Assembly: GCA_003218375.1 (NCBI GenBank)
Contig: QHNH01000010.1
Coordinates: forward strand, 24,597 to 88,596
Direction of reading: 5' to 3'
DNA: 64,000 nucleotides
Source: Verrucomicrobiota bacterium
GTDB taxonomy: Bacteria > Verrucomicrobiota > Verrucomicrobiia > Chthoniobacterales > UBA10450
Shown: in pieces, positions 27,937 to 40,290 of the stretch
Layout: the number at the start of each line of letters is the position of its first letter
Numbering within the stretch: position 1 is the first letter of the stretch
Position numbers and translations under genes: made by a program
The notes under the pieces: model-generated
The model's input: only the letters and a program-made list of their open reading frames with translations
Told to the model about the DNA's origin: nothing
The model's database searches: none

Positions 27937-28446
27937 ATGAAAATGAAAACGATCGCGCTGTTCGTCATGCTCACGGTTTCTCTCGCTGGCCTCCTCCAGG
28001 CCAAGACCCTGAAGTTCCCGAAAGATAATCCGCAGTTCAGCGTGACCTTCACGAGCGATTGGAAGGCTGAGATTACGGACGCGGGCATCATCAGCGCGCA
28101 ACCGAAAGGCGCGGCCTACGCGATCAGTATTTTTCCGGTGCAGGCGACGAACGCCAAGGGGGCGATCGAGGAAACGATGAAGGAAGTCGAGAAACGTTTC
28201 GAGAGCATCAAGGGGAGCGATCCGTCCGAGTTCAAGACCGAGAACGGCATCAAGTTTCTCGAGCGCGATCTTACCGCGAAAGATAAAGGCTCGCCGCGGG
28301 CGCTCGCGATCCTAGCCTTCAGCCTGGATAAGCAAACTTACTTCGCGATTTTCCAGGCCGGCACCCCGGAGGCGGACAAAAAATACACCGAGGATGTCGC
28401 CGTCATCGTGAAATCGATCACCGCTCTTAAGAGCGACGACGACTAA
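27937..28446 (+). CDS. Secreted hypothetical protein
   Basis: Signal peptide MKMKTIALFVMLTVSLAGLLQA. Confidence 0.55.
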   Translation: MKMKTIALFVMLTVSLAGLLQAKTLKFPKDNPQFSVTFTSDWKAEITDAGIISAQPKGAAYAISIFPVQATNAKGAIEETMKEVEKRFESIKGSDPSEFKTENGIKFLERDLTAKDKGSPRALAILAFSLDKQTYFAIFQAGTPEADKKYTEDVAVIVKSITALKSDDD

Positions 28447-28469
28447 GCCAGGCGCAAACAATTCTGGTT

Positions 28470-28544
28470 TGGCAGCGCGTACGGGAATCGAACCCGTCTT
28501 TCGGCCTTGAGAGGGCCATGTCCTAACCGATAGACGAACGCGCC
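28470..28544 (-). tRNA. tRNA-Glu (CTC)
   Basis: GGCGCGTTCGTCTATCGGTTAGGACATGGCCCTCTCAAGGCCGAAAGACGGGTTCGATTCCCGTACGCGCTGCCA. Confidence 0.85.
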
Positions 28545-28630
28545 AGAATTGCGTCGGCGAAAATCCTAGCGGCAAATCCCGATTCGGCAAGCCGCCTTCT
28601 TCGGGAGCGACCAGTCGTTAGGCCTGGGCT

Positions 28631-29176
28631 TCAGGGCGTGGCGCTCGGCGTGGCGGTCGGTTCCGGGCGGACATGCGGTTGAGCGAGATTATTGAGCGAG
28701 TCCTTTTTCCTTTGCTCGAGATACGCCTTTATTTCGGGAGTTTCGGCGAGCGCCTGCATGCGGGCATAAAAAATCTTGTAGTAAGCGCGCATCAGGTTGC
28801 GCTTATCCGCGTCGGTGCGTCCGGTCTCGATCGCCTTTTTCGCGGCGATCACTTCGGGATCGGCGCTGGCGCGGTTCTTGAGCTTGCGCCATTCCAGGTG
28901 GAGCCGTTGCTCTTCGACGGCCGCGCCTAACGAGGAATGCTGGAAGGCCGCATCGAGCTCGGAAAGGGAGGGCACGTTCTTCTTTGGTGCGGGCGACGTG
29001 TTCGGGACGAGCGGTGACGGTTCCACCGTCATCGGGATATCCGGGATCTCAAGCTGCGGCCGCGCGCTCGGGCTCGGCGCCGGGGTTTCGGTCGCGGATG
29101 GCAACGGCGGTTCCTGCGCGCGGAGGAGCATGGCGCCCAGGATTAACGCTGCCATGGTGGCGGAAAGAAATTTCAT
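28631..29176 (-). CDS. Secreted hypothetical protein
   Basis: Signal peptide MKFLSATMAALILGAMLLRA. Pro-rich N-terminal region. Confidence 0.55.
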   Translation of the reverse strand: MKFLSATMAALILGAMLLRAQEPPLPSATETPAPSPSARPQLEIPDIPMTVEPSPLVPNTSPAPKKNVPSLSELDAAFQHSSLGAAVEEQRLHLEWRKLKNRASADPEVIAAKKAIETGRTDADKRNLMRAYYKIFYARMQALAETPEIKAYLEQRKKDSLNNLAQPHVRPEPTATPSATP

Positions 29177-29194
29177 TCGCTGTCACTATCGCGA

Positions 29195-29245
<51 letters not shown>

Positions 29246-29249
<4 letters not shown>

Positions 29250-29482
29250 TTGAGGTTGTTGAGTTCATCGCGCCCTCGCCCTGTTTTGTAATATCGTTCT
29301 TTCAAGAGCGCTTCGGATCGGGTCTCGAACTGTTCGGTGTGGACCAGGATCCACGGCACCCCGTGCTTGGTCGCTTTGGATTCGCCGCGGTTATGCCGGC
29401 CAAGCCGATCATTCATGTCCTCACAAGAGCCAACATATCGCCGGCCAGTTTTCCCACTTTTCAAAACATACACATAAAACAT
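29246..29482 (-). CDS. Small GIY-YIG nuclease-family protein
   Basis: MFYVYVLKSGKTGRRYVGSCEDMNDRLGRHN... has the GIY-(x10)-YVG motif and the R..H. Its stop codon overlaps the tRNA fragment. Confidence 0.75.
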
Positions 29483-29516
29483 TTCAGCTCGTTGAGCTAA
29501 TCGGTTTGATGGGAAA

Positions 29517-29590
<74 letters not shown>

Positions 29591-29643
29591 AGATTCCTTG
29601 ATGCTTATCATGCGCGAGAGGGCTCCGCATGCGGAAACTGAGA

Positions 29644-29719
29644 GACCTGTCGCCGCGGCGACCGCTTTACCAAGTTCGCCCCGGCGAATCCGTCCTTTGG
29701 CGGACTAAGCTACACCCCG
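29644..29719 (-). other. 5' portion of a disrupted tRNA-Pro-like gene with a 31-nt D-loop insertion
   Basis: Reverse complement: CGGGGTGTAGCTTAG[TCCGCCAAAGGACGGATTCGCCGGGGCGAAC]TTGGTAAAGCGGTCGCCGCGGCGACAGGTC. Confidence 0.65.
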
Positions 29720-29781
29720 CAATGTTTCGTGATGCTTATCACGCGTCGCACCGCCACGCATGCAAAAGTTCCGCGCGACCT

Positions 29782-32700
29782 TCACCGCTCCAGGTTTGGC
29801 CCGAGCCACCTCTCGATGTATTCGATACTGGCGTTTTTTCGCGCGGCGTAATCGCGCACCTGGTCGTCGCCAATTTTTCCGACTCCGAAATACTTCGAAT
29901 CCGGGTGGGAAAAATAGAGACCGCTTACGCTGGCACCCGGATGCATGGCAAACGATTCCGTAAGCGTGATGCGGGTCGTCTTTTCCGCCCCCAGCAAGTC
30001 GAACAGGGTGCGCTTCTCGGTGTGGTCCGGTGAGGCCGGATAGCCGGCGGCCGGGCGGATGCCGCGGTATTTCTCGCGGATCAATTCATCCTGCGAAAGT
30101 TTTTCATCATCGCCAAATCCCCAGGCGATGCGGGCTTCGCGGTGAAGAAACTCAGCGAATGCTTCCGCGAGCCGGTCCGCGAGCGCCTTTGTCAGGATGG
30201 CGTTGTAGTCGTCGTGATCGGCCGCGAACTTCGCCGCCAGTTCGTCCGCCCCGATGCCCGCGGTCACGGCAAAGCCGCCGAGGTAATCGATCGCGTCGGG
30301 CGCGATGTAATCGGCCAGGCAATGATTGAACTGTGCTGTCGGCTTTTTCATTTGCTGGCGCAGAAAATGGAATGTCGCCAGCGGCTCGCGCCGCGTTTCG
30401 TCCGTGTAAATTTCAACGTCGTCACCGATCGCCTTCGCTGGCCAGAAAGCAAAAGTGCCACGAGCAATCAGGAGTTTTTCGGCGCGAATGCGCTGCAGCA
30501 ATTTTTGCGCATCGTCAAAAAGTTCCTGTGCCTGTGTGCCTACGACTGGATCATTGAAGATCGCCGGATACCGCCCCCGCAATTCCCAGGTGTGAAAGAA
30601 CGGCGACCAATCGATGTAAGGGATCAAGTCATCGAGCGTGATGAGTCTCTTCTGGGGAGCGCACGCGCCTCGCGTGCTGGTTTCGGCGCCCCGCCGAAAC
30701 GCATCTTCCTCTGCCAGCAAAGTCCGCGATGGCGAGGCGCCATCGCCGGCACGCGAGGCGCGTGCGCTCCCCAGATCACTTGCATACACGCGCGCGCCCA
30801 AAAACTCCGGCTTCGGCGGCGTATAACTTGTCCAATCAATCGGCGTCCGGTTCGCTCGCGCTTCTTCCAGCGTAATCAGCTTCTTCTCTTTTGACTTCGC
30901 CGCGTGCTCTTCCCGGAGTCGCGCATAGTCATCACGCGTTTGCTTGTCGAAGGCCTCTCTCGATTCGTCGCTCAACAAACTGCTCACTACGCCGACGGCG
31001 CGTGATGCATCCAGGACGTGCACCGTGCTCGCGCGATAATGTTGGGCGATCTTCACGGCGGTATGCGCTCGACTGGTCGTCGCGCCGCCAATCAGCAGCG
31101 GCAGCGAGAAGCCTTCGCGTTCCATCTCCTGCGCCACGTGCACCATTTCATCGAGCGACGGCGTGATGAGTCCGCTCAACCCGATCACATCCGCTTTCCG
31201 TTCCCGTGCCGTCTCCAGAATCTTCGCCGCCGGCACCATCACGCCGAGATCGATCACTTCGTAATTGTTACATTGCAGCACCACGCCCACGATGTTTTTG
31301 CCGATGTCGTGGACGTCGCCTTTCACGGTCGCCATGACAATCCGCGCCTGCGGTTTCGCATCAGCGCGTTTCTCCGCCTCCATGAACGGAAGCAGATAGG
31401 CGACCGCCTTCTTCATCACCCGCGCACTCTTTACCACCTGCGGCAAAAACATTTTGCCCGCGCCGAACAAATCGCCCACGACGCTCATCCCCGCCATGAG
31501 CGGCCCTTCGATCACTTGCAAGGGCCGGCTGAATTTCTGGCGCGCTTCCTCCGTGTCGGCCTCGATGAAATCGACGATGCCCTTCACGAGCGCATGTGAA
31601 AGCCGCTCTTCGACCGGCGCGTGCCGCCACGCCTCTTTTTCGACCGGTGTTTTCTCGCCGCCCTTGACCCGTTCCGCGAATTCGACCAGCCGTTCGGTCG
31701 CATCATCCCGCCGGTTGAGGAGGACATCTTCCACCCGAGTTTTCAGCTCCGGCTCGATCTCTTCGTAAACGGCGAGTTGGCCGGCGTTGACGATCGCCAT
31801 GTCGAGGCCGGCCTGGATGGCGTGAAATAGAAACGCGGCGTGCATCGCCTCGCGGACCGCGTTGTTGCCCCGGAAGGAAAAGGAAATGTTGCTTACCCCG
31901 CCGCTGGTTCGCGCTCCGGGCAGGTTCGTCTTGATCCAACGCACGGACTCGATGAAATCGACCGCGTAGTTGCGATGTTCCTCCAGGCCGGTCGCGACTG
32001 TCAGGATGTTTGGGTCGAATATGATGTCGTTAGGCGAAATGCCCGCGCGCTCAGTCAGGAGTCGATAAGCGCGCGCGCAAACCTCGATCCGCCGCTGGTA
32101 GCTGTCGGCCTGGCCGGTTTCATCGAATGCCATCACGATGACCGCCGCGCCATAACGCCGGACCAGCGCCGCCTGCCGCAGGAATTCCTCTTCGCCGTTT
32201 TTCAGGCTGATCGAGTTCACGACGGCTTTGCCCTGGACGCATTTCAGGCCAGCCTCGATCACGCTCCACTTCGAGCTGTCGATCATCATCGGAATGCGCG
32301 CGATTTCCGGCTCGCTCCCGATCAGGTGCAGAAACTTCGTCATCGACGCTTCGGAATCGATCATCCCTTCGTCCATGTTGACGTCGAGAATGTTCGCCCC
32401 GCCGCTGACCTGCTGGCGTGCCACCGCGAGCGCCGCCTCGAAATCCCCCGCCAGGATCAGTTTCGAAAATTTCGGAGAGCCCGTGATGTTGGTCCGTTCG
32501 CCCACCACCACGAACCCCATTTCCGGCGTGATGTTCAGCGGCTCGAGCCCTGATAATTGTAATGCTCCCGCCTCCGCGCGATCGCTCTTTCCGGGGAGCG
32601 CACGCGCCTCGCGTGCCGTCTTCGGCGCCCCCGCCGAAGACCCCTCCGGTGTCCACAACCAGGGATAATCCTCGCCCTGTTCGACAAGTCCGGCATCCCA

Positions 32701-34260
32701 CGGATTCCCGCAAATATACTCAAACTTTTCCTGCAGGTCCGATTCGGACCGAATCAGACGATCGAACGATTCTTTTTCCCAAAGCGGCCCCGTCGTTTCG
32801 GCCGCCTTATTGATGCGGTGAGCCGTCGATGATTTGATCGCCTGCAGGATCTCGCTCAAGGAGCAGAACAGCGTCGCACCAGCCGAATCTTCACCTTTCA
32901 CCTGCGGCTCAAAGAGCAAGTGAACGTGGTCCGGCATCACGCAGCACACGTACAACTCGTATTGGCCGTGTTCATAGCCATGCAGCACGCTTCGCAAAAC
33001 GATGTCTCTTTCCGCTGGGGCTAATTGACGACGCTCGCGAGTCGAAAAAGTAACTGCGTATTTTGCCCGCGGCCGCTCGAAGTGAGGGAGATGGCGTTTT
33101 GAATACGATACGTCGGCAGAGATTTCGGCGGGGGCGCCGAAATCAGCACGCGAGGCGCGTGCGCTCCCCAGATTGCGTGATTCTACGCGGCGCGGCGGAA
33201 GGTCGCGCACCTTCTCCGCGATCAATCGGATATGATCTGGGGTCGTCCCGCAGCAGCCGCCGACAATGTTCAGCCAGCCGTTCCGCGCCCATCTCTCGAG
33301 TTGCGGGGCAAGGCTTTCCGGCGTCTCGGGAAAACCGGTCGGAGACAACGGATCGGGCAGCCCGGCGTTCGGATACGCGCTTACGTATCGGTTGGTGCCA
33401 TGCGCGAGCTCTTCGATGTACGGCTCCATCTCGCCGGGCCCGAGCGCGCAGTTCAATCCCACCACGAGCGGATCCGCGTGGGCGATCGACGTCAGAAATG
33501 CTTCGACCGTTTGTCCGCTCAGGATTCGCCCGGAGCGATCGGTCACCGTTCCGGAAATGATAAGCGGAACTCTCCGGCCCAATTTTTCGAACAGTTCGGT
33601 AATGGCCGCGATCGCTGCTTTTGCATTCAGGGTGTCGAAAATAGTTTCGACCATCAGCAGATCTACGCCGCCCTCCAGCAAAGCGGCAGCCTGTTCGCTG
33701 TAGCTTTTTCGAATCTGATCGAACGTGACCGCGCGAAAACTGGGATCGTTTACATCGGGAGACAGCGAAGCCGTGACTGGCAATGGGCCGAGCGAACCGC
33801 CGACGAAACGCCGGCGTCCTGTCTCGTTCGAGACCGTGTCCGCCGCATGACGCGCCACGCGGGCCGCGTTGAGATTGATCTCCGCCACCAGGTCGCAATA
33901 CTCCCGGTCGTCCACGACGCGCTGGAAAAACTCGGCGTCTTTGCGTCCGCTGTCCGGCTCGCCCTGAAAAAGAAAGTCATGAAGACCGATGGTCGTGCCG
34001 CTGAAGGTGTTGGTTTCGATGATGTCCGCGCCGGCTTCGAGATAACGCCGGTGGATTTCGTCGATGAGATCGGGTTTCGTGAGGAGCAGGATCTCGAGAC
34101 AGCCCTTGAGGTCTTTTCCTTTCCAATCCTGGAAGCGGTCGCCGCGATAACCGGCTTCGCTGAGTTTGTATTGCTGGACCATCGTCCCCATGGCCCCGTC
34201 GAGCACGACGATGCGCTCGCGCATGAGCGCTTCGAGAGGATGGAGAGTATCGGCCGGCAT
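29782..34260 (-). CDS. metH: Cobalamin-dependent methionine synthase carrying two in-frame palindromic-element insertions
   Basis: [11 protein letters not shown] (Hcy domain), GERTNITGS (pterin domain), [10 protein letters not shown] (DxHxxG, B12 domain), [13 protein letters not shown] and [12 protein letters not shown] (AdoMet domain). 1492 codons versus about 1230 canonical. Confidence 0.9.
30654..30772. repeat. Family A REPIN-like element (A1), in frame within metH
   Basis: GGGGAGCGCACGCGCCTCGCGTGC...GCACGCGAGGCGCGTGCGCTCCCC with two inner hairpins. Confidence 0.9.
32593..33169 (-). mobile_element. Family A element carrying a RAYT (REP-associated Y1/HUH transposase), in frame within metH
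   Basis: Same 24-nt inverted arms as A1. The internal translation has the HUH motif (HVHLL) and [14 protein letters not shown]...YPW. Confidence 0.8.
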
Positions 34261-34366
34261 GGTGAACCAGAACTAAACCGCAGTTCCCCGTGCACGGCAA
34301 GGAACAAATTGACGCATCATGATGCGTAGATGTGTTGTTCCTCGTGCTCGTAATCGATTGTTTCTT

Positions 34367-34475
34367 CTGTAGCCGCGTCCCTGTGGGACGCGTGAGAGCA
34401 TACGTCGACGACAGTTCGACCCGTTAATCGGAATGGAGCGCAGACCCGAGCGGCCCACAGGGCCGCTGCTACAAG
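34367..34475. repeat. REP-like palindromic element, family B variant (B5)
   Basis: CTGTAGCCGCGTCCCTGTGGGACGCG...GCGGCCCACAGGGCCGCTGCTACAAG. Confidence 0.75.
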
Positions 34476-34494
34476 CAAGGGATCACGACCAGGA

Positions 34495-34881
34495 TTAAGA
34501 GGAAGAAGACCGCAGCCGCGCCAGGAACGATTCGCCATGGCCCTGCAGCTTCTCCTCCAGCTGCACCGTGCAATCGCAATCGCAGCATGCCCACGCCTCG
34601 GTGCCGTTCTCATGCCGGCAATTGCGCCGCGAGTGGGCGTCCTTCACGACTAGGAGTTCGAAATACTTCTCCCAATAAGGCCGCTCTTCTTCCAATGGCG
34701 GATCGCAGAAACAGGTTTCTACCCAGGTGGCCACGCCAGACGGATTGATCCGCGCCTGTTTCATGTTGTGCTGATATTCGTCGCCGGCGATCGAGCCTTT
34801 GCCGAGCGTGTCGCCAATGATTGCGCCCAGCAGCGGCTGCTCCTGACCCGGTTTCACACGGGCTTTCACCAAATAGCGCAT
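34495..34881 (-). CDS. Hypothetical Cys-rich protein
   Basis: ORF with a CxC-rich C-terminus (WACCDCDCTV). No family recognised. Confidence 0.5.
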   Translation of the reverse strand: MRYLVKARVKPGQEQPLLGAIIGDTLGKGSIAGDEYQHNMKQARINPSGVATWVETCFCDPPLEEERPYWEKYFELLVVKDAHSRRNCRHENGTEAWACCDCDCTVQLEEKLQGHGESFLARLRSSSS

Positions 34882-34941
34882 CCCGACGCAAGGTAATCGA
34901 GACTTTCCAGTTCGCAGCGAGGAAAGTTAGATTCGCCCGAA

Positions 34942-36171
34942 ATGGAAACGCTCCGCCTTTTCAAATCGCTCACTCCCGAGCAGCGGAACACCTTCGTGGC
35001 CTGTTTCCTCGGCTGGGCCCTGGACGCGCTCGATTTTTTCCTGGTCACTTTTGTGCTCGGGCAGCTCTCGCAAGATTTTGGCAGAACGATTCCGCAAGTC
35101 GCCTTTTCCATTACGCTGACCCTGATGATGCGCCCGCTCGGCGCCTTCATCTTCGGTTTGTTAGGCGACAAGTTCGGCCGCCGCGTTCCCCTGATGATCG
35201 ATATCGTTTTCTACTCGGTCATGGAATTGCTGACCGCGTTCGCTCCGAACTTTACCGTTTTCCTGATCCTGCGCGCGCTTTTCGGCATCGGGATGGGCGG
35301 CGAGTGGGGCCTGGGAGCATCGCTCGCGATGGAATCGCTGCCCACAAAAGCCCGCGGGTTATTCTCCGGAATTCTGCAACAAGGCTACGCCGTCGGGTAT
35401 CTCTTGGCGGCGCTGGTCTACTGGATCGTGTTTCCCCACTTTGGATGGCGCGGACTTTTCATCGCGGGCGCGCTTCCGGCGCTGCTGGTCATCTACATTC
35501 GCGCCCGTGTTCCCGAATCGCCGGTTTGGCAGCGCGATCGGGCGCAGCCCCGGCCTCGGCTGAAGCTTGCCGCGCTCGTCAGGCAACACGGCCGCCTCTT
35601 CCTTTACGCGGCGCTCCTGATGACCGCGTTCAATTACATGTCGCACGGGACCCAGGACCTTTACCCGACGTATCTCGAGAAACAGCGCGGCTTTGGCGTA
35701 AGCGCGAAGTCCATGATCAGTATCGTTTATGCGCTGGGAGCGATTTGCGGTGGCGTAGTCATCGGTCATCTTTCGCAACATTGGGGCCGCCGCCGCGTGA
35801 TCATCTTCTCCGCAATCGGCGGAATGTTGCTGATCCCGCTTTGGATTTTCGCGCCGAGCACGGCCTTGCTCATCGTCGGTGGATTTCTGATTCAATTCAT
35901 GGTGCAGGGAGCTTGGGGCGTTGTTCCCGTCCACTTGAATGAATTGTCGCCGCCCGATCTGCGCGGCACTTTTCCCGGCCTCGCTTATCAGCTGGGAAAT
36001 TTCGCCGCGGCTTACGCGGCCCAACAGCAGGCCTGGCTGGCGGGAGAATTTCGAATGGCGAACGGCGAGCCGAACTACGCGCTTACCATGGCGCTGGTGC
36101 AAAGTGTCGTCTTTGTCGCGATTATTATTTTGGCTGCGATAGGGCGGGAAAAACGCGGGATCGAGTTTTAG
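34942..36171 (+). CDS. MFS transporter
   Basis: Twelve TM segments with the GLLGDKFGRR motif. Confidence 0.8.
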   Translation: METLRLFKSLTPEQRNTFVACFLGWALDALDFFLVTFVLGQLSQDFGRTIPQVAFSITLTLMMRPLGAFIFGLLGDKFGRRVPLMIDIVFYSVMELLTAFAPNFTVFLILRALFGIGMGGEWGLGASLAMESLPTKARGLFSGILQQGYAVGYLLAALVYWIVFPHFGWRGLFIAGALPALLVIYIRARVPESPVWQRDRAQPRPRLKLAALVRQHGRLFLYAALLMTAFNYMSHGTQDLYPTYLEKQRGFGVSAKSMISIVYALGAICGGVVIGHLSQHWGRRRVIIFSAIGGMLLIPLWIFAPSTALLIVGGFLIQFMVQGAWGVVPVHLNELSPPDLRGTFPGLAYQLGNFAAAYAAQQQAWLAGEFRMANGEPNYALTMALVQSVVFVAIIILAAIGREKRGIEF

Positions 36172-36173
36172 CC

Positions 36174-36267
36174 AGGTAGGGACGCTTTTCCGAAGCGTCC
36201 GTCGAATCTTCACAGGCCGGCACTCACGACGGAAATAGTCGGACGCTTCGGAAAAGCGTCCCTACCT
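36174..36267. repeat. REP-like palindromic element, family C variant (C2)
   Basis: AGGTAGGGACGCTTTTCCGAAGCGTCC...GGACGCTTCGGAAAAGCGTCCCTACCT. Confidence 0.8.
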
Positions 36268-36277
36268 GAAGTGAAAT

Positions 36278-36976
36278 CTACTGCCCGTGTTCCGATGAGG
36301 TCGCGGCCGCGTCGGACGTGCTCGCGGGCGCGCGATAGGTTCCCTTGCCGTAGCGCTCATCCACGATCGCCTCGGCAATTTTATCCGCCAGATCGTCGCG
36401 GCGACTGGCGCTGCGGGCGGCGGCGCCTTCCTTGCGGTTGCTCAGGAATCCGCACTCGACCAGAACGGCGGGATACGTCGCTTTTCGCAGGACCCGAAAA
36501 TTCGCGGTCTTCACGCCACGGTTCACGGCGCCGGGCAACGTCATGATGTGCTGTTGGATCCGATAGGCGAGAGTCCGCGCCACGGGCGAATGGTAATACG
36601 TTTCAAACCCACGAATCCCGCGCCGGCCGGAATCGTTGAAATGAACGCTGACGAAGATGGCGTTGCGCTGCCGGTTCGAGATGGCGGCCCGTTCATCCAG
36701 TGGAATGAAAACGTCGTTCGACCGAGTCATGACGACATGGAACTGGGACTCGCGCAACTTGGCCGCGAGCCGTGTTGCCACGTCGAGAGTCGCGTTTTTC
36801 TCCGCACCACCGAAGCGGCGAAAAGCTCCGTTGTCTTTACCACCATGTCCCGCATCGACGACGACGGTGGTGAAGGTGCGCGTCGTATCCCTGACGTTAA
36901 GGGAAGGACCGGTGCCGCAACTGGTGAGGAAAACGGCTCCAGCGGCCATCGAGAGGACTGACAAGAATCGGGGCAT
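36278..36976 (-). CDS. N-acetylmuramoyl-L-alanine amidase (AmiC-type) lipoprotein
   Basis: Lipobox FLTSC. Contains VVVDAGHGGKDNGA and SVHFN. Confidence 0.8.
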   Translation of the reverse strand: MPRFLSVLSMAAGAVFLTSCGTGPSLNVRDTTRTFTTVVVDAGHGGKDNGAFRRFGGAEKNATLDVATRLAAKLRESQFHVVMTRSNDVFIPLDERAAISNRQRNAIFVSVHFNDSGRRGIRGFETYYHSPVARTLAYRIQQHIMTLPGAVNRGVKTANFRVLRKATYPAVLVECGFLSNRKEGAAARSASRRDDLADKIAEAIVDERYGKGTYRAPASTSDAAATSSEHGQ

Positions 36977-37034
36977 GGGCACTCGTAGCGCAAAGGCGAA
37001 TGCGCGCCACCGATTTTTCTCTGCCTTCGGCGCC

Positions 37035-37137
37035 GGAACATAGACTTCCAGTCTGTGCGCCCTGCGGAGTTGTACTCCGCTGAGAAGGTTAGCGGACAAC
37101 ATGTCCGCTGGACGCACAGGCAGGATGCCTATGTTCC
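37035..37137. repeat. Four-hairpin palindromic element, family D (D1, diverged)
   Basis: GGAACATAGACTTCCAGTCTGTGCG...CGCACAGGCAGGATGCCTATGTTCC. Confidence 0.8.
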
Positions 37138-37222
37138 GGGCGAAGCGGCTCCAGAAGAGCGGCTGCAATCCAAAAACCGCTTGTAATTTTCGCGCCTCCA
37201 CTTAAAGCGCTTTACCGCATTT

Positions 37223-38776
37223 ATGCTTACTCGATTCGCATTTCTTCCTCTGTTTTTGGCGCTCGGCCTGGCGAGCTGCAAAAAAATTTCCAGCATTGCC
37301 GCCACGAACCCGACGGATCAAACCAAGACCGCCGCGGCTTCGGCGACACCAAACGCAGCCATCTCGGCAGCGGCCGCCACGCCTTCTGCGCCTCCGGTTA
37401 TCAGCAAACCGGTCGTGGACCAGAACGCCCAGGTCGTCATTTTCGGTTACCACCGTTTCGTGAACAACGTGAAGCACCCCGACACCGAGATCACGCCGGC
37501 CGCTTTCGAAGCGCAGATGCAGGAGCTGAAGAACAAGAACATCAGCGTGATTCCCATGCAGGATTTTCTCGCCTGGCGGCGAGGCGAGAAAGCGATCCCG
37601 GCGAAGAGCGCCATCATCACATTCGACGACGGCTGGAAATCGCAACACGAAGTCGCCTGGCCGATCATGAAAAAATTTAACTATCCGTTCACGCTCTTCA
37701 TTTACACAGAGGGCATAAAGCCGGGGCATTTCAGCGGCGGCGAATCGATGAGCTGGGAGCAGCTCGCGGAGATGCGCGACGCCGGCGTCGATATTCAAGG
37801 GCACACCGCGACCCATTCGGATTTGCGCAAGCCGTACGACAAGGTGGCGAAGAAAAAATTGAACCCACAGGAATACGAGGAGTGGCTCAACAAGGAAATC
37901 GTCGGCTCGAAGCAGATGATCGAGCAGAAGCTCGGCGTAAAGGTGAACTGCTTCGCGGTTCCCTACGGATTTCACAACGACCACATCCGCGATGTGGTGA
38001 TGAAGGCGGGCTATGAAGCAGTCTTCACCGTTTACGGGCAGCCCATCACAATGCACACGCCGCTTAGTTCGGTCGGCCGTTATCTGATGGAGGCGAACAA
38101 ACCGAAGACATTCACCGATGCCGTGGCCGCCATCGCTACGACTGCGGTGGGCCCCTCAGTCGCGGAAGTGGCGCCGTCGAACCTGCAGACCCAGCCGGCG
38201 GACGGCGAGATGATCAAGAACGCGTTGCCGCTGATCAAGGCGAACATCGCGTCGCTCGGGACGATCGATCCCGGCTCCGTCGAGATGCGGGTTAGCGGCC
38301 TCGGCAAGGTCGATGCCAGTTTCGATCCCAAGAGCAACACGGTGGCGTATCAGGTCACGCAGCGACTCAAGGACAAGACCTGCACGGTCATTGTGTCCGA
38401 TGCCGTCCGTCGCGGCGACGAGCGCGCCGACCGTAGCCCCAACTGCGGCGAAGCCGAAGAAAAAGAAAAAGTAAGCTGCGATCATGATTTCTCTGGGGAG
38501 CGCACGCGCCTCGCGTGCTGGCGATCGCGCCCTCGCGATCGCGGACTTTTTCGGTTTCGAAGCCGGAACTCAAAGCACAAGATTGTTTCGGCGAGGCGCC
38601 GAAACCAGCACGCGAGGCGCGTGCACTCCCCGGATTTAGAGCACCATGTTTTCGCAGCTCGGCGACAAGCTTCAGGACATCTTCAAGGACCTTCGCGGTC
38701 ACGGGACGATCAGCGAAGCGAACATCAACGACGCGTTGCGCCAGGTGCGCCTCGCGTTGCTCGAAGCCGACGTTGA
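37223..38776 (+). CDS. Polysaccharide deacetylase (NodB-type) lipoprotein; 3' end doubtful
   Basis: Lipobox LGLASC and the ITFDDGW motif. The ORF runs through repeat A3 and 130 nt into ffh, which suggests a late frameshift. Confidence 0.7.
   Translation: MLTRFAFLPLFLALGLASCKKISSIAATNPTDQTKTAAASATPNAAISAAAATPSAPPVISKPVVDQNAQVVIFGYHRFVNNVKHPDTEITPAAFEAQMQELKNKNISVIPMQDFLAWRRGEKAIPAKSAIITFDDGWKSQHEVAWPIMKKFNYPFTLFIYTEGIKPGHFSGGESMSWEQLAEMRDAGVDIQGHTATHSDLRKPYDKVAKKKLNPQEYEEWLNKEIVGSKQMIEQKLGVKVNCFAVPYGFHNDHIRDVVMKAGYEAVFTVYGQPITMHTPLSSVGRYLMEANKPKTFTDAVAAIATTAVGPSVAEVAPSNLQTQPADGEMIKNALPLIKANIASLGTIDPGSVEMRVSGLGKVDASFDPKSNTVAYQVTQRLKDKTCTVIVSDAVRRGDERADRSPNCGEAEEKEKVSCDHDFSGERTRLACWRSRPRDRGLFRFRSRNSKHKIVSARRRNQHARRVHSPDLEHHVFAARRQASGHLQGPSRSRDDQRSEHQRRVAPGAPRVARSRR
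38495..38631. repeat. Family A REPIN-like element (A3)
   Basis: Same 24-nt arms as A1 (one mismatch). Inner hairpins GGCGATCGCG-ccc-TCGCGATCGC and GTTTCGGCG-agg-CGCCGAAAC. Confidence 0.9.
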
Positions 38777-39965
38777 TTTCCAGGTCGCGAAGAATTTCAT
38801 CGGCCGAGTCAAAGAGAAGGCGCTCGGTGAAGAAGTCCTGCGCAGTGTCACGCCCGGCCAGCAGATCGTTAAGATTTTTTATGACGAATTGACGGCGCTG
38901 CTGGGCGGTAACGCCGCGCCGCTGAATCTGGAAAAACCGGCGCGCATTTTGATGGTGGGCTTGAACGGCGCGGGGAAAACAACATCGTCGGCCAAGCTGG
39001 CCCGGTATCTCAAGAAGCAGGGGCGCGCGCCGCTCCTCATCGCCTGCGATTTGCAACGGCCGGCGGCCATCGAGCAACTGGCCACGCTCGGCCGCCAGGT
39101 CGAGGTCCCGGTTTACACTCCTGATTCGCAGGAAAAAAATGTGCGCCGCTCGGCCGCCGCGAGCCTTGATTGGGCCGCGGAACAAAGCGGCAACGTCCAG
39201 ATTTTCGATACCGCGGGCCGCCAGGAAATCGATACGGCGCTCATCGAAGAAATCAAAGAGCTGAAGGAATTCCTGAAACCGCAGGAGGTCCTGCTCGTTG
39301 CTGACGCGGCGACGGGGCAACAAGCGGTCAGCGTTGCCACCCATTTTCATGAAGCGCTCGGCATCACCGGGATCGTGCTGACGAAACTCGATGGCGACGC
39401 GCGCGGTGGCGCCGCACTTTCGATGCGCGAAGTGACGCAGCGGCCGATCAAGTTCGCGGGCGTCGGGGAGAAGCTGGATCAATTCGAGCTGTTCGTGCCG
39501 GATCGTCTCGCAGGACGGATCCTCGGGATGGGCGACATCGTCGGGCTCGTCGAGAAAGCCGCGGAAGCAGTCGACGAAGAAGAAGCGCTCCGGTTGCAGC
39601 GGAAGCTGAAGAGCGCGTCGTTCGATTTCAACGATTTCCTGGCCCAATTCAAAATCATGAAGAAGATGGGTCCGCTGGAGAATATTCTTGGCATGATCCC
39701 CGGGATGAGTAACGTGCAGGGCCTCTCCGTGGACGAGAAGCAGCTCAAGCGGACGGAAGCGATTGTGCTTTCCATGACGCAGGAGGAGAGATCGCGGCCC
39801 GACATTCTGAATGCCCGGCGCCGCCAACGAATCGCCCGCGGCAGCGGTAGCAGCGTCACCGAAGTGAACGATCTGCTCCAGCGTTTCAATCAGATGCGAA
39901 AGATGATGAAGAACGCCGGGAAAATGAAAAGAATGATGGCGCAAATGGCGCGGATGAAAAATTAA
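38646..39965 (+). CDS. ffh: Signal recognition particle protein
   Basis: [14 protein letters not shown] and [10 protein letters not shown] motifs, plus a Met-rich C-terminal domain. Confidence 0.95.
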
Positions 39966-39969
39966 CGAT

Positions 39970-40290
39970 ATGGCAGTTTCAATCAGATTACGCAGAGAAG
40001 GCGCCCTGAACCGGCCCTACTACAAGGTGGTCGTGGCCGATAGCCGCAGCCCGCGCGACGGCAAATTCATCGAGATCATCGGCACCTACGACCCGAAGAA
40101 GCCGGGGCATAACAGCACGCTGAAGATGGACCGGATCGAGCATTGGATTTCCAAGGGCGCACAGCCCTCGGACACGGTCCGCAGCTTGATCAAGAAGAAC
40201 CGGAAGCAGAGTGCGAGCACGCCGGCGGAAGAGCCTGCGCCAGCACCCGCTCCCGCCGAAGCAGCAGCAGCCGCTCCGGCGACGGAGTAA
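39970..40290 (+). CDS. rpsP: 30S ribosomal protein S16
   Basis: [35 protein letters not shown]. Confidence 0.95.

Follow-up and report, generated by a model that had tools for sequence, protein, structure and literature searches.

The metH gene of the window (the whole 64-kb stretch of DNA analyzed here) raises the question of what a foreign block in the linker between the homocysteine-binding (Hcy) and pterin domains of an essential enzyme is, and how it persists there. We consider it probable that the block is a REP-RAYT-REP unit persisting as an in-frame passenger domain of that enzyme. The MetH of 1492 aa carries all five modules (Hcy, pterin, cap, B12, and activation) by Pfam, and the pLDDT of its Hcy domain in the AlphaFold model was mostly 80 to 97. 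The ORF scored 1622 bits against TIGR02082 (cutoff, 1011) and 1954 bits against the NCBIfam methionine synthase model PRK09490 (cutoff, 1497); the latter match was split in three stretches, consistent with two insertions in metH. The coordinates of all features are listed in Table 1.

Table 1. Features of the metH locus and its REP elements, in window coordinates
Feature	Position	Strand	Details
metH ORF	29782..34260	-	1492 codons + stop; open through both insertions
MetH homocysteine-binding domain	33208..34209	-	residues 18-351; S-methyl_trans PF02574, E 1.6e-84
In-frame foreign block, REP-RAYT-REP	32593..33171	-	codons 364-556, 193 aa, Hcy/pterin linker; stop-free
Upstream REP arm (coding sense)	33146..33169	-	GGGGAGC, then hairpin GCACGCG-CCT-CGCGTGC; peptide GSARASRA
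Inner hairpin, upstream end	33122..33143	-	ATTTCGGCG-CCCC-CGCCGAAAT
RAYT catalytic core	32659..33084	-	MetH residues 393-534; RHLPHF, HUH motif, catalytic Tyr (FEYICGNPW)
Inner hairpin, downstream end	32619..32640	-	TCTTCGGCG-GGGG-CGCCGAAGA
Downstream REP arm (coding sense)	32593..32616	-	hairpin GCACGCG-AGG-CGCGTGC, then GCTCCCC; peptide ..AREARALP
MetH pterin-binding domain	31786..32502	-	residues 587-825; Pterin_bind PF00809, E 4.7e-59
MetH cap + B12-binding domains	31072..31614	-	residues 883-1063; B12-binding_2 883-956, B12-binding 973-1063
Second in-frame insertion in metH, REPIN	30654..30772	-	B12/activation linker; two inverted 24-nt arms, 71 nt apart
MetH activation (AdoMet) domain	29833..30636	-	residues 1209-1476; Met_synt_B12 PF02965, E 2.2e-119
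Third REPIN, same family	38495..38631	.	arms with 0 and 1 mismatch

The unit measures 577 nt from GGGG to CCCC (32593-33169), and the protein passes from NL to GSARA at its upstream junction and from RALP to GKS at its downstream one. At the Hcy/pterin linker, the window exceeds a syntenic empty-site orthologue (L082) by 588 nt (196 codons), which is the clean gap that had been expected in an orthologue alignment. Exact copies of the 24-mer GGGGAGCGCACGCGCCTCGCGTGC lie at 32593-32616 (+) and 33146-33169 (-); the 64-kb window holds 6 copies of it, compared to 0.00 expected from 100 shuffles. The inverted repeat formed by the block ends reaches 58 nt with 86% complementarity, and each end folds into the REP hairpin plus a second, inner hairpin of the TTCGGCG..CGCCGAA type. 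When folded as single-stranded DNA (ssDNA), the two ends gave dG values of -22.9 and -26.5 kcal/mol (z of -3.7 and -4.7), and the termini GGGGAGCGC and GCGCTCCCC recur in 58 RAYT-size pairs among the genome loci and the window. The original prediction of a 193-codon block with 24-nt inverted arms and double hairpins at each end was thus borne out by the ORF, the exact matches, and folding, as was its claim of a complete REP-RAYT-REP unit at this linker that shares strand and frame with metH and has no stop codon.

The identity of the enzyme within the block was addressed by profile, motif, and structure comparisons. The block scored 89.5 bits against the NCBIfam model NF047646 (REP_Tyr_transpos; cutoff, 80) over profile positions 4 to 145 of 146 and 38 bits against the Pfam model Y1_Tnp (cutoff, 23; residues 399 to 497), so the expected Y1/RAYT profile matches were obtained above both cutoffs. 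In the alignment with E. coli TnpA-REP (4ER8), PDHVHLL and FEYICGNPW correspond to its HmH and dYIyiNP motifs. Among the clade sequences, the two HUH histidines are kept in 85/86 and 86/86 and the catalytic tyrosine in 84/86. AlphaFold gave the RAYT core a pLDDT of about 78 to 92 in one prediction and of 85 to 96 in another. The predicted RAYT fold had 4ER8_A, E. coli TnpA-REP, as its best PDB match in Foldseek (E of 8.7e-7; target-normalized TM of 0.67), and the ISDra2 and IS608 TnpA proteins also matched it (E of 1e-5 to 1e-4). These comparisons confirm the product of the block as a RAYT whose HUH and Tyr motifs are intact, a predicted REP-ssDNA transposase. An IS200/IS605 insertion sequence was rejected as a candidate, given that the block reached only 24.4 bits against TnpA_IS200 (NF033573; cutoff, 55) and that a second ORF would not fit in the 577-nt unit.

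The REPs of the block also occur outside it. The second in-frame insertion in metH, absent from the original prediction, has the same 24-nt arms as the RAYT block, is translated in frame with metH, and folds as ssDNA with a dG of -66 kcal/mol (z of -13). In relatives, the B12/activation linker is empty or holds REPINs of at least four families, and some MetH sequences carry a full second RAYT copy there. The third REPIN (dG of -62 kcal/mol; z of -9.7) is located in the interval that separates ffh from the conserved part of a polysaccharide deacetylase gene. Both elements are REPINs in the defined sense, being composed of inverted REPs that form one long hairpin and occurring in several copies. 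Soil metagenomes contain at least 119 REPINs with exact arms; of 80 that were sampled, only 11 have an open frame of at least 80 codons on each side. These REPINs are therefore mostly extragenic, and the intragenic placement is thus specific to the RAYT-bearing copy. REPIN density near RAYT loci is modest.

How the RAYT is expressed from within metH depends on where its translation begins. As predicted for ATG and GTG, no in-frame ATG, GTG, or TTG is present in the window between the left REP and the RHLPHF of the RAYT core, and none is conserved ahead of the core in 14 aligned clade members. The Val/Ile position ahead of YSKR is GTA in the window, which is no start codon, and the RAYT reading frame passes through both flanking REPs. 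In nonfused relatives (n = 13), the ORF start is variable and lies upstream of the left REP, with the ORF ending just past the right REP. One nonfused copy (L016) lies in an operon gap, where its start is overlapped by the end of the upstream gene, and related free copies show an ATGA stop/start overlap with the downstream gene. Stand-alone RAYTs of 40 to 45% identity have their own Met 4 to 20 residues ahead of the YRRNLPH motif. This RAYT clade has been shown to be without the start codon that its stand-alone relatives possess, and the designation of the metH RAYT as autonomous does not apply to its expression.

Two splicing routes were considered and rejected. Protein splicing was set aside because Pfam detected no Hint or intein domain in the metH ORF and because junction nucleophiles and a splicing motif are missing. 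RNA splicing by an IStron or a group I or II intron was set aside because Rfam, at gathering thresholds, found no intron around the RAYT at 28000-40000, where two tRNAs were the sole matches.

The lack of start codons in the window and in the 14 aligned members, the GTA codon, and the fact that no embedded copy has a stop codon between RAYT and host all weigh against the idea that the RAYT works as a separate protein, with the fusion being merely a carrier or by-product. Noncanonical internal initiation or re-initiation would produce such a protein, or else proteolysis would release it at the linkers that the REPs encode. We regard this as unlikely, even though known RAYTs are small stand-alone proteins and the REP-encoded segments (residues 361-394 and 540-583; pLDDT below 50 by AlphaFold) are predicted to be disordered and could be open to proteases. 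It also draws on the split variants, in which the RAYT is joined to the upstream Hcy domain only, so that the downstream link is dispensable. In at least one lineage, a real stop codon follows the right REP and the remaining MetH restarts as a second ORF, so an uninterrupted downstream fusion is not obligatory.

The metH case is not singular. An in-frame RAYT is present at the Hcy/pterin linker in 37 of 121 aligned MetH sequences (the window protein and its 120 best homologues), and the RAYT clade, found in soil Verrucomicrobiota, was located at 80 genome loci: 38 in AlaRS, 27 in MetH, 10 in ThrRS, and about 7 free. Cluster representatives add RecG, PriA, PurH, ValRS, shikimate kinase, BirA, and a PFL-like enzyme as hosts. 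Insertion sites are domain linkers or surface loops, and the RAYT lies almost always within another gene's frame. A single genome may hold several RAYTs in different host genes, a single gene may hold two, and RAYT clades mostly follow host gene and site. Among the 27 MetH genome loci, 18 have one uninterrupted frame; the other 9 show frame changes and are mostly long-read MAGs, in which the shifts are spread over the length of the gene. The RAYT in metH is accordingly one case of an architecture conserved in a Verrucomicrobiota clade and shared by other housekeeping hosts. We found no description in the literature of a transposase lodged in frame in housekeeping genes without a start of its own.

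MetH sequences 95 to 98% identical to one another include both filled and empty alleles in an interleaved pattern; loss or exchange of the RAYT among near-identical MetH is frequent. One relative (L083) keeps a left-REP remnant at the insertion site, and scar-like remnants (GPGSARAPQ and PGSAGAPHK) are found at linker 2 in others. Judging from these alleles and the syntenic empty site in L082, excision or loss of the insert clearly occurs. IS200/IS605-family Y1 transposases excise precisely, and the same observations could fit an excision-dependent switch, in effect a DNA-level intein, in which the inserted allele encodes a poor or inactive MetH and precise RAYT-mediated excision from ssDNA restores metH in a subpopulation. 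We consider such a switch improbable. The insert is in frame and stop-free even between lineages with saturated synonymous sites (dS of 1.3 to 1.8); excision before expression would not need an open frame, so a frame kept this long counts against it. Inserts in AlaRS and ThrRS keep to the frame in the same way; the genes for these enzymes are normally single copy and essential, and there the "off" state should be lethal. In addition, the L083 scar represents an imprecise deletion rather than a precise excision. The data can be accounted for without the switch offered as one reading in the original prediction, although its premise that excision or loss takes place clearly stands.

Selection on the fusion was estimated as median dN/dS (NG86) over 10 loci with the insertion. 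The RAYT core gave a dN/dS of 0.089 (dS, 1.7), compared to 0.10 for the Hcy domain, 0.077 for the pterin to B12 region, and 0.086 for the activation domain. The peptides encoded by the upstream REP (dS, 0.32; dN/dS, 0.59) and the downstream REP (dS, 0.19; dN/dS, 0.74) had a dS of only 0.19 to 0.32, compared to about 1.7 in the flanks, and the REPs are therefore constrained as DNA. By these estimates, purifying selection on the RAYT core is shown to be as strong as that on MetH, metH past the insert is shown to be still under purifying selection, and the REPs are shown to be conserved as nucleic acid and not as peptide.

Selection equal to that on the host domains might also be expected if the HUH domain had been co-opted for a host function (nucleic acid binding, localization, or regulation) and had lost its role in REPIN mobility. 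Long-term persistence, clades that follow host gene and site, and the fact that several hosts bind nucleic acids (aminoacyl-tRNA synthetases, RecG, and PriA) would suit this reading. We nonetheless find it very improbable, given that the hosts (MetH, PurH, shikimate kinase, BirA, and others) are functionally unrelated, the catalytic HUH and Tyr residues are kept, the flanking REPs are conserved at the nucleotide level and are exact matches to dispersed REPINs, and near relatives manage without the insert. The unusual protein length, the frameshifts at some MAG loci, and the capacity of palindromic repeats to mislead assemblers might suggest a dead metH, as the original prediction had allowed, or an assembly chimera, but this is scarcely worth entertaining, since a dead gene is refuted by the dN/dS of 0.077 to 0.086 past the insert across insertion-bearing orthologues and by the full scores of every MetH domain, and mis-assembly is not credible when the exact 1492-aa protein is on record in three contigs of different length classes and dozens of independent assemblies, as well as 37 of 121 aligned MetH sequences, show this architecture too.

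A tolerated linker insertion is the best supported of the three readings first proposed, and we suggest the following course for a REP-RAYT-REP passenger domain. Ribosomes starting at the metH AUG would read across the whole unit, from the left REP through the RAYT to the right REP, and yield a MetH::RAYT fusion, in which the Gly/Ser/Ala/Arg/Pro-rich REP peptides, predicted to be disordered, would serve as flexible linkers and the HUH/Y1 domain would fold next to the two MetH barrels and leave them functional. MetH requires large domain movements, and its activity could drop with 193 extra residues separating the Hcy barrel from the pterin barrel. The RAYT domain, either fused or freed by proteolysis, would act in trans on the ssDNA REP hairpins of a REPIN population that would include both REPINs of the window. 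An essential, always-expressed host gene would provide the promoter, ribosome binding site, and start codon, and residence there would shield the RAYT from loss because only in-frame deletions would be viable. The unit may occasionally be excised, and its conserved flanks may let it spread between relatives via homologous recombination.

To our knowledge, all described members of the RAYT family are stand-alone genes with their own translation start. RAYT/REPIN systems have reportedly been studied by Nunvar in 2010, Bertels and Rainey in 2011, and Ton-Hoang in 2012. The metH unit shares with such systems, including E. coli TnpA-REP/YafM (PDB 4ER8) and the RAYTs of Pseudomonas fluorescens SBW25 (PMC3116915, PMC5581495), an HUH/Y1 catalytic domain, a gene placed between inverted REP hairpins, the dispersal of the same REPs as inverted doublets (REPINs) with long hairpins, and a mostly vertical inheritance. 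In descriptions of known RAYTs, the gene stands alone with a start of its own and the REPs are extragenic (PMC3116915, PMC5581495), whereas the metH RAYT has no start, has both REPs translated, and lies in frame in a housekeeping gene. The HUH/Y1 fold is also common to IS200/IS605 TnpA; unlike those elements, the metH unit has no TnpB partner, and its ends are REP hairpins common to REPINs.

In-frame palindromic repeats within ORFs are known from the Rickettsia RPEs and from GTAG/CGTC REPs located within genes, as in Opitutus terrae among others (Di Nocera et al. 2013, PMC3733652). There, short palindromic repeats and their dimers have entered genes without breaking the frame, and the proteins concerned, tRNA synthetases and repair enzymes among them, are functional; one of the richest cases of intragenic REPs is a verrucomicrobium (PMC3733652). 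The REPIN at 30654-30772 belongs to this already described type. The RPE and intragenic REP inserts are 20 to 80 aa long and encode no enzyme, whereas the metH block supplies a whole catalytic domain of 150 aa under purifying selection, and its REPs begin with GGGGAGC and are not GTAG or CGTC tagged.

IStrons, in which an IS200/605- or IS607-type transposon is fused to a group I intron and self-spliced from the mRNA (bioRxiv 10.1101/2023.11.20.567912), likewise place a Y1-family transposon inside genes and make the insertion phenotypically silent. At metH no intron was detected, and silence would come from in-frame translation at a permissive linker. Inteins with homing endonucleases are in-frame residents of conserved essential genes as well, occur sporadically among close relatives, rely on host transcription and translation signals, and are protected because imprecise loss is lethal. 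Unlike an intein, with its Hint domain, junction nucleophiles, and splicing motif, the metH insert is expected to stay in the mature protein.

The block embedded in the metH ORF is a REP-associated tyrosine transposase (RAYT) by its sequence, its motifs, its predicted fold, and its REP flanks. When translated alone, it scored 89.5 bits against the NCBI curated REP-associated tyrosine transposase model (cutoff 80), covering profile positions 4-145 of 146, and stayed below the cutoff of the IS200 transposase model (24 bits versus 55). The profile search proposed in the original prediction returned both a RAYT match above cutoff and a Y1_Tnp match within the ORF (see the table). The HUH and Tyr motifs of the block can be aligned to the corresponding motifs of E. 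coli TnpA-REP. A PDB sequence search gave one weak match, 4ER8 (TnpA-REP bound to a REP hairpin; E 0.0026), and the same entry was, more clearly, the best PDB fold match of the AlphaFold model of the block. The core of this model is confident and well folded, and the adjoining REP-encoded peptides are predicted to be disordered.

Features of the metH region, with MetH domains in residues of the 1492-aa ORF
Feature	Location	Strand	Source
metH ORF, 1492 aa	29782..34260	-	ORF call
S-methyl_trans	residues 18-351		Pfam
Y1_Tnp	residues 399-497		Pfam
Pterin_bind	residues 587-825		Pfam
B12-binding_2	residues 883-956		Pfam
B12-binding	residues 973-1063		Pfam
Met_synt_B12	residues 1209-1476		Pfam
REP arm 24-mer GGGGAGCGCACGCGCCTCGCGTGC	32593-32616	+	exact match
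REP arm 24-mer GGGGAGCGCACGCGCCTCGCGTGC	33146-33169	-	exact match
REPIN, 119 nt, same 24-nt arms, in frame in metH between the B12 and activation domains	30654-30772		
REPIN between the deacetylase gene and ffh	38495-38631		
tRNA	29517-29590	-	Rfam
tRNA	28473-28544	-	Rfam

All five MetH modules were present in order in the Pfam annotation of the 1492-aa ORF, and the NCBIfam methionine synthase model matched in three stretches, which is compatible with two insertions in MetH. Codons 364-556 (32593-33171) are stop-free and keep the metH frame, and no in-frame ATG, GTG, or TTG occurs in the window sequence upstream of the transposase core inside the block. A hidden RAYT start codon was ruled out, given that none is conserved among the window sequence and its aligned relatives. 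The arm sequence is present in six copies in the window, forming three inverted pairs where chance would give none, and both ends of the block fold as two ssDNA hairpins each. The observation behind the original prediction, a stop-free and start-less foreign block in frame in metH between exact 24-nt inverted arms, was thus confirmed in every detail of ORF, domains, and arms, and its interpretation as an embedded RAYT unit is supported overall. An intein or intron was ruled out, given that Pfam found no Hint domain in the 1492-aa protein and Rfam found no introns or riboswitches in 28-40 kb, where two tRNAs were the sole matches. A second RAYT was not found in the 64 kb by tblastn. Immediately 3' of metH and adjoining a tRNA gene lies a 103-aa ORF with a GIY-YIG domain (29246-29557, minus strand), assigned to PF01541 in the precomputed annotation of an identical contig.

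The same RAYT clade was found in frame in several unrelated host genes. A genome scan with one genome per species yielded no fewer than 505 confirmed loci. We analyzed the best 80; most of these carry Verrucomicrobiota labels (Chthoniobacterales, Limisphaerales, and Udaeobacter), and a few come from other or unclassified bins. In 75 of these best 80 loci, the frame that holds the RAYT stays open for hundreds of codons to each side of it, save for contig-end cuts and frame breaks in some copies, and the hosts among them are alanyl-tRNA synthetase (AlaRS; 38 loci), MetH (27), and threonyl-tRNA synthetase (ThrRS; 10). An exhaustive search of cluster representatives added RecG, PriA, PurH, ValRS, another class I synthetase, shikimate kinase, BirA, and a glycyl-radical enzyme. 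The RAYT phylogeny forms clades that mostly track host gene and insertion site, and single MAGs can carry RAYTs in different host genes (MetH and AlaRS in CAVWVT01; ThrRS and AlaRS in CAZMOZ01 and DAONTI01). Two copies from different clades can even share one host ORF, either at the two MetH linkers or at two AlaRS sites (loci L014, L061, L064, and L073; proteins P0142, P0145, and P0163). The elements at loci L002-L081 all begin with GGGGAGCGC and finish with GCGCTCCCC, usually with YCY before and RGA after. The REP stems differ by RAYT subfamily through compensatory changes (GCACGCG/CGCGTGC, GCGCCCG/CGGGCGC, GCGGGCG/CGCCCGC, and GCGACCG/CGGTCGC), which suggests that each RAYT co-evolves with its own REP. 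Among 86 clade members, one HUH histidine is retained in 85 and the other in all 86, and 84 members have the catalytic Tyr.

These patterns bear on two other accounts of the block. A pure excision-dependent switch of metH, one of the readings offered in the original prediction, is unlikely, given that it would not need the frame to stay open across such divergence, or in AlaRS and ThrRS. Co-option of the RAYT domain by its host is also unlikely, since the hosts are unrelated and the catalytic residues are kept.

Selection was estimated pairwise (NG86) across 10 MetH::RAYT loci. The RAYT core had a median dN/dS of 0.089 (median dS 1.7), close to the values for the Hcy domain (0.10; dS 1.7), the pterin-to-B12 region (0.077; dS 1.3), and the activation domain (0.086; dS 1.8). 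The left and right REP peptides gave median dN/dS values of 0.59 and 0.74 at median dS values of 0.32 and 0.19. These values indicate that the transposase is conserved as protein, that the REPs are conserved as nucleic acid, and that metH is still alive 3' of the insert. The proposal of a dead metH therefore fails, given the dN/dS of 0.077-0.086 for the MetH domains 3' of the insert. A metH pseudogene or an assembly artifact was rejected on the basis of dN/dS, recurrence across assemblies, and the identical 1492-aa protein recorded on three contigs.

We aligned the window MetH with its 120 best homologues. In 37 of the 121 sequences, at 71-87% overall identity to the window, a RAYT lies in frame at the linker between the Hcy and pterin domains (linker 1). 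Three have an additional RAYT in the linker that joins the B12 domain to the activation domain (linker 2), exactly the spot of the window REPIN. Other relatives have nothing at linker 2, or have in-frame repeats there that belong to at least four families, one of which also occurs at linker 1. We also noted at least three other in-frame repeat families at the two linkers in MetH proteins P0121-P0240, with the peptides LGSAGCQPAVAGSLPAT..LAACAPQ, VIPSEVEESR..STSLRSAQDD, and LGSARLRRAGFGILPKQ..PQACAPQ, as well as short scar-like remnants (GPGSARAPQ, PGSAGAPHK, and DLGSADKA). The comparison with orthologues called for in the original prediction revealed the gap at linker 1: the syntenic orthologue L082 has an empty linker and is 588 nt shorter there, and L083 retains only CTGGGGAGCGCACGCGC, a left-REP scar. 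Filled and empty alleles are intermixed among MetH sequences that are 95-98% identical, with differing linker cassettes, and RAYT and MetH distances, compared as a check on strict co-phylogeny, correlate only moderately (rho 0.63 overall and just 0.24 within the shallow clade). RAYT loss from metH is frequent, and allelic exchange by homologous recombination is possible.

Frame changes occurred in 9 of the 27 MetH genome loci, most of which are long-read MAGs with shifts spread along the whole gene. At locus L007 (6001-6600), the metH ORF stops at ...ARALPSKDA, five codons beyond the right REP. Two bases later (TGATATG) a second ORF opens with MNALELSGLEPL, giving an Hcy::RAYT fusion and a separate pterin-B12-activation protein. 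Independent JGI proteins show the same split; P0007, P0010, and P0013 share this end, and P0003 and P0008, which end in ARALPDQNAREQ, are further split variants. Given that the split lineage keeps the RAYT joined to the Hcy domain, RAYT translation still appears to rely on the metH start.

The few "free" copies of the clade also have an ORF that spans both REPs, with its start codon 5' of the left REP. The nonfused copies L011, L016, L020, L021, and L026 share one conserved position. At L016 the RAYT fills an operon gap, and its ORF starts within the end of the preceding 307-aa gene. At L011, L016, and L021, the next gene, which starts MxWVRxHYE, has its ATG overlapping the RAYT stop; a similar M-D-W gene start lies a few bases past the stop at L020 and L026. 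This arrangement suggests that these free copies are translationally coupled within the operon. More distant stand-alone RAYTs, of 160-170 aa and at 40-45% identity, possess a Met of their own directly ahead of the YRRNLPH motif, indicating that the embedded clade lost its start.

Two REPINs (two inverted REPs folding as one long hairpin) in the window have arms identical to those of the block, so the RAYT has cognate REPINs close by. Both fold as ssDNA into long hairpins, with z-scores of -13 within metH and -9.7 upstream of ffh. Soil-metagenome REPINs of the same family are mostly extragenic: of 80 sampled, only 11 are flanked on each side by 80 or more open codons in frame; intragenic placement is thus a trait of the RAYT-bearing copy and not of the repeat family. 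REP density around the loci was taken from exact 9-mer REP termini counted in 12-kb flanks and is a rough estimate only. At the REPIN upstream of ffh, the polysaccharide deacetylase ORF, as called mechanically (37223-38776, plus strand; PF01522, residues 126-267), runs stop-free through the repeat and ends 130 nt into ffh (38646-39965, plus strand), out of frame with that gene. A Lys-rich tail, with a TAA at 38472-38474, occupies a frame different from the deacetylase ORF; this REPIN, at the 3' end of the gene, may have altered the deacetylase C-terminus, or a frameshift may be present.

We consider it probable that the block is the passenger of a MetH::RAYT fusion, with the REPs as linkers, service in trans to REPINs, and protection by the host gene. 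Ribosomes starting at the metH start would produce the fusion, in which the Gly/Ser/Ala/Arg/Pro-rich REP-encoded stretches would act as linkers and the HUH domain could act in trans for the REPIN population. The essential host gene would provide expression signals and shield the RAYT from deletion, and conserved host flanks could let it spread via homologous recombination. With somewhat less confidence, we favor extending this reading to the start-less clade in soil Verrucomicrobiota as a translated in-frame passenger domain of essential housekeeping enzymes (MetH, AlaRS, ThrRS, ValRS, RecG, PriA, PurH, AroK, BirA, and others), occupying an intein-like niche without splicing, with REP hairpins doubling as linkers.

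The textbook example of a vertically inherited transposase and its nonautonomous repeats is the RAYT/REPIN system, described as a stand-alone gene with extragenic repeats. The block breaks this implicit rule, since its RAYT is not a stand-alone gene and its REPs are not extragenic. In-frame REPs/RPEs have been described before, one host being the verrucomicrobium Opitutus terrae (PMC3733652), and the REPIN at linker 2 is a new member of this kind. Our full-text literature search, with most subscription journals outside its reach, found such repeats and no account of a RAYT placed in frame within a host gene. At least one Y1-superfamily survey excluded proteins that were longer than expected, treating them as fusions or misannotations (PMC6006769), and in-frame RAYTs may thus have gone unseen.

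Collectively, our findings point to a general and apparently undescribed lifestyle in which a transposase clade resides in frame in housekeeping genes. One sequence would serve two uses, as a DNA signal and as a peptide linker, and the dependence of RAYT dosage on housekeeping gene expression becomes testable. The sites in MetH, AlaRS, ThrRS, and other hosts form a natural catalog of positions that tolerate a 190-aa domain insertion, which is useful in protein engineering. To judge from the alignments, a transposase with kept catalytic residues that is read through at a permissive linker of essential enzymes, and is long-lived given that synonymous sites are saturated, would represent a new route of persistence. 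This route would stand beside those of inteins and IStrons, whose niche is alike, although inteins depend on protein splicing and IStrons on RNA splicing, and the block does without either.
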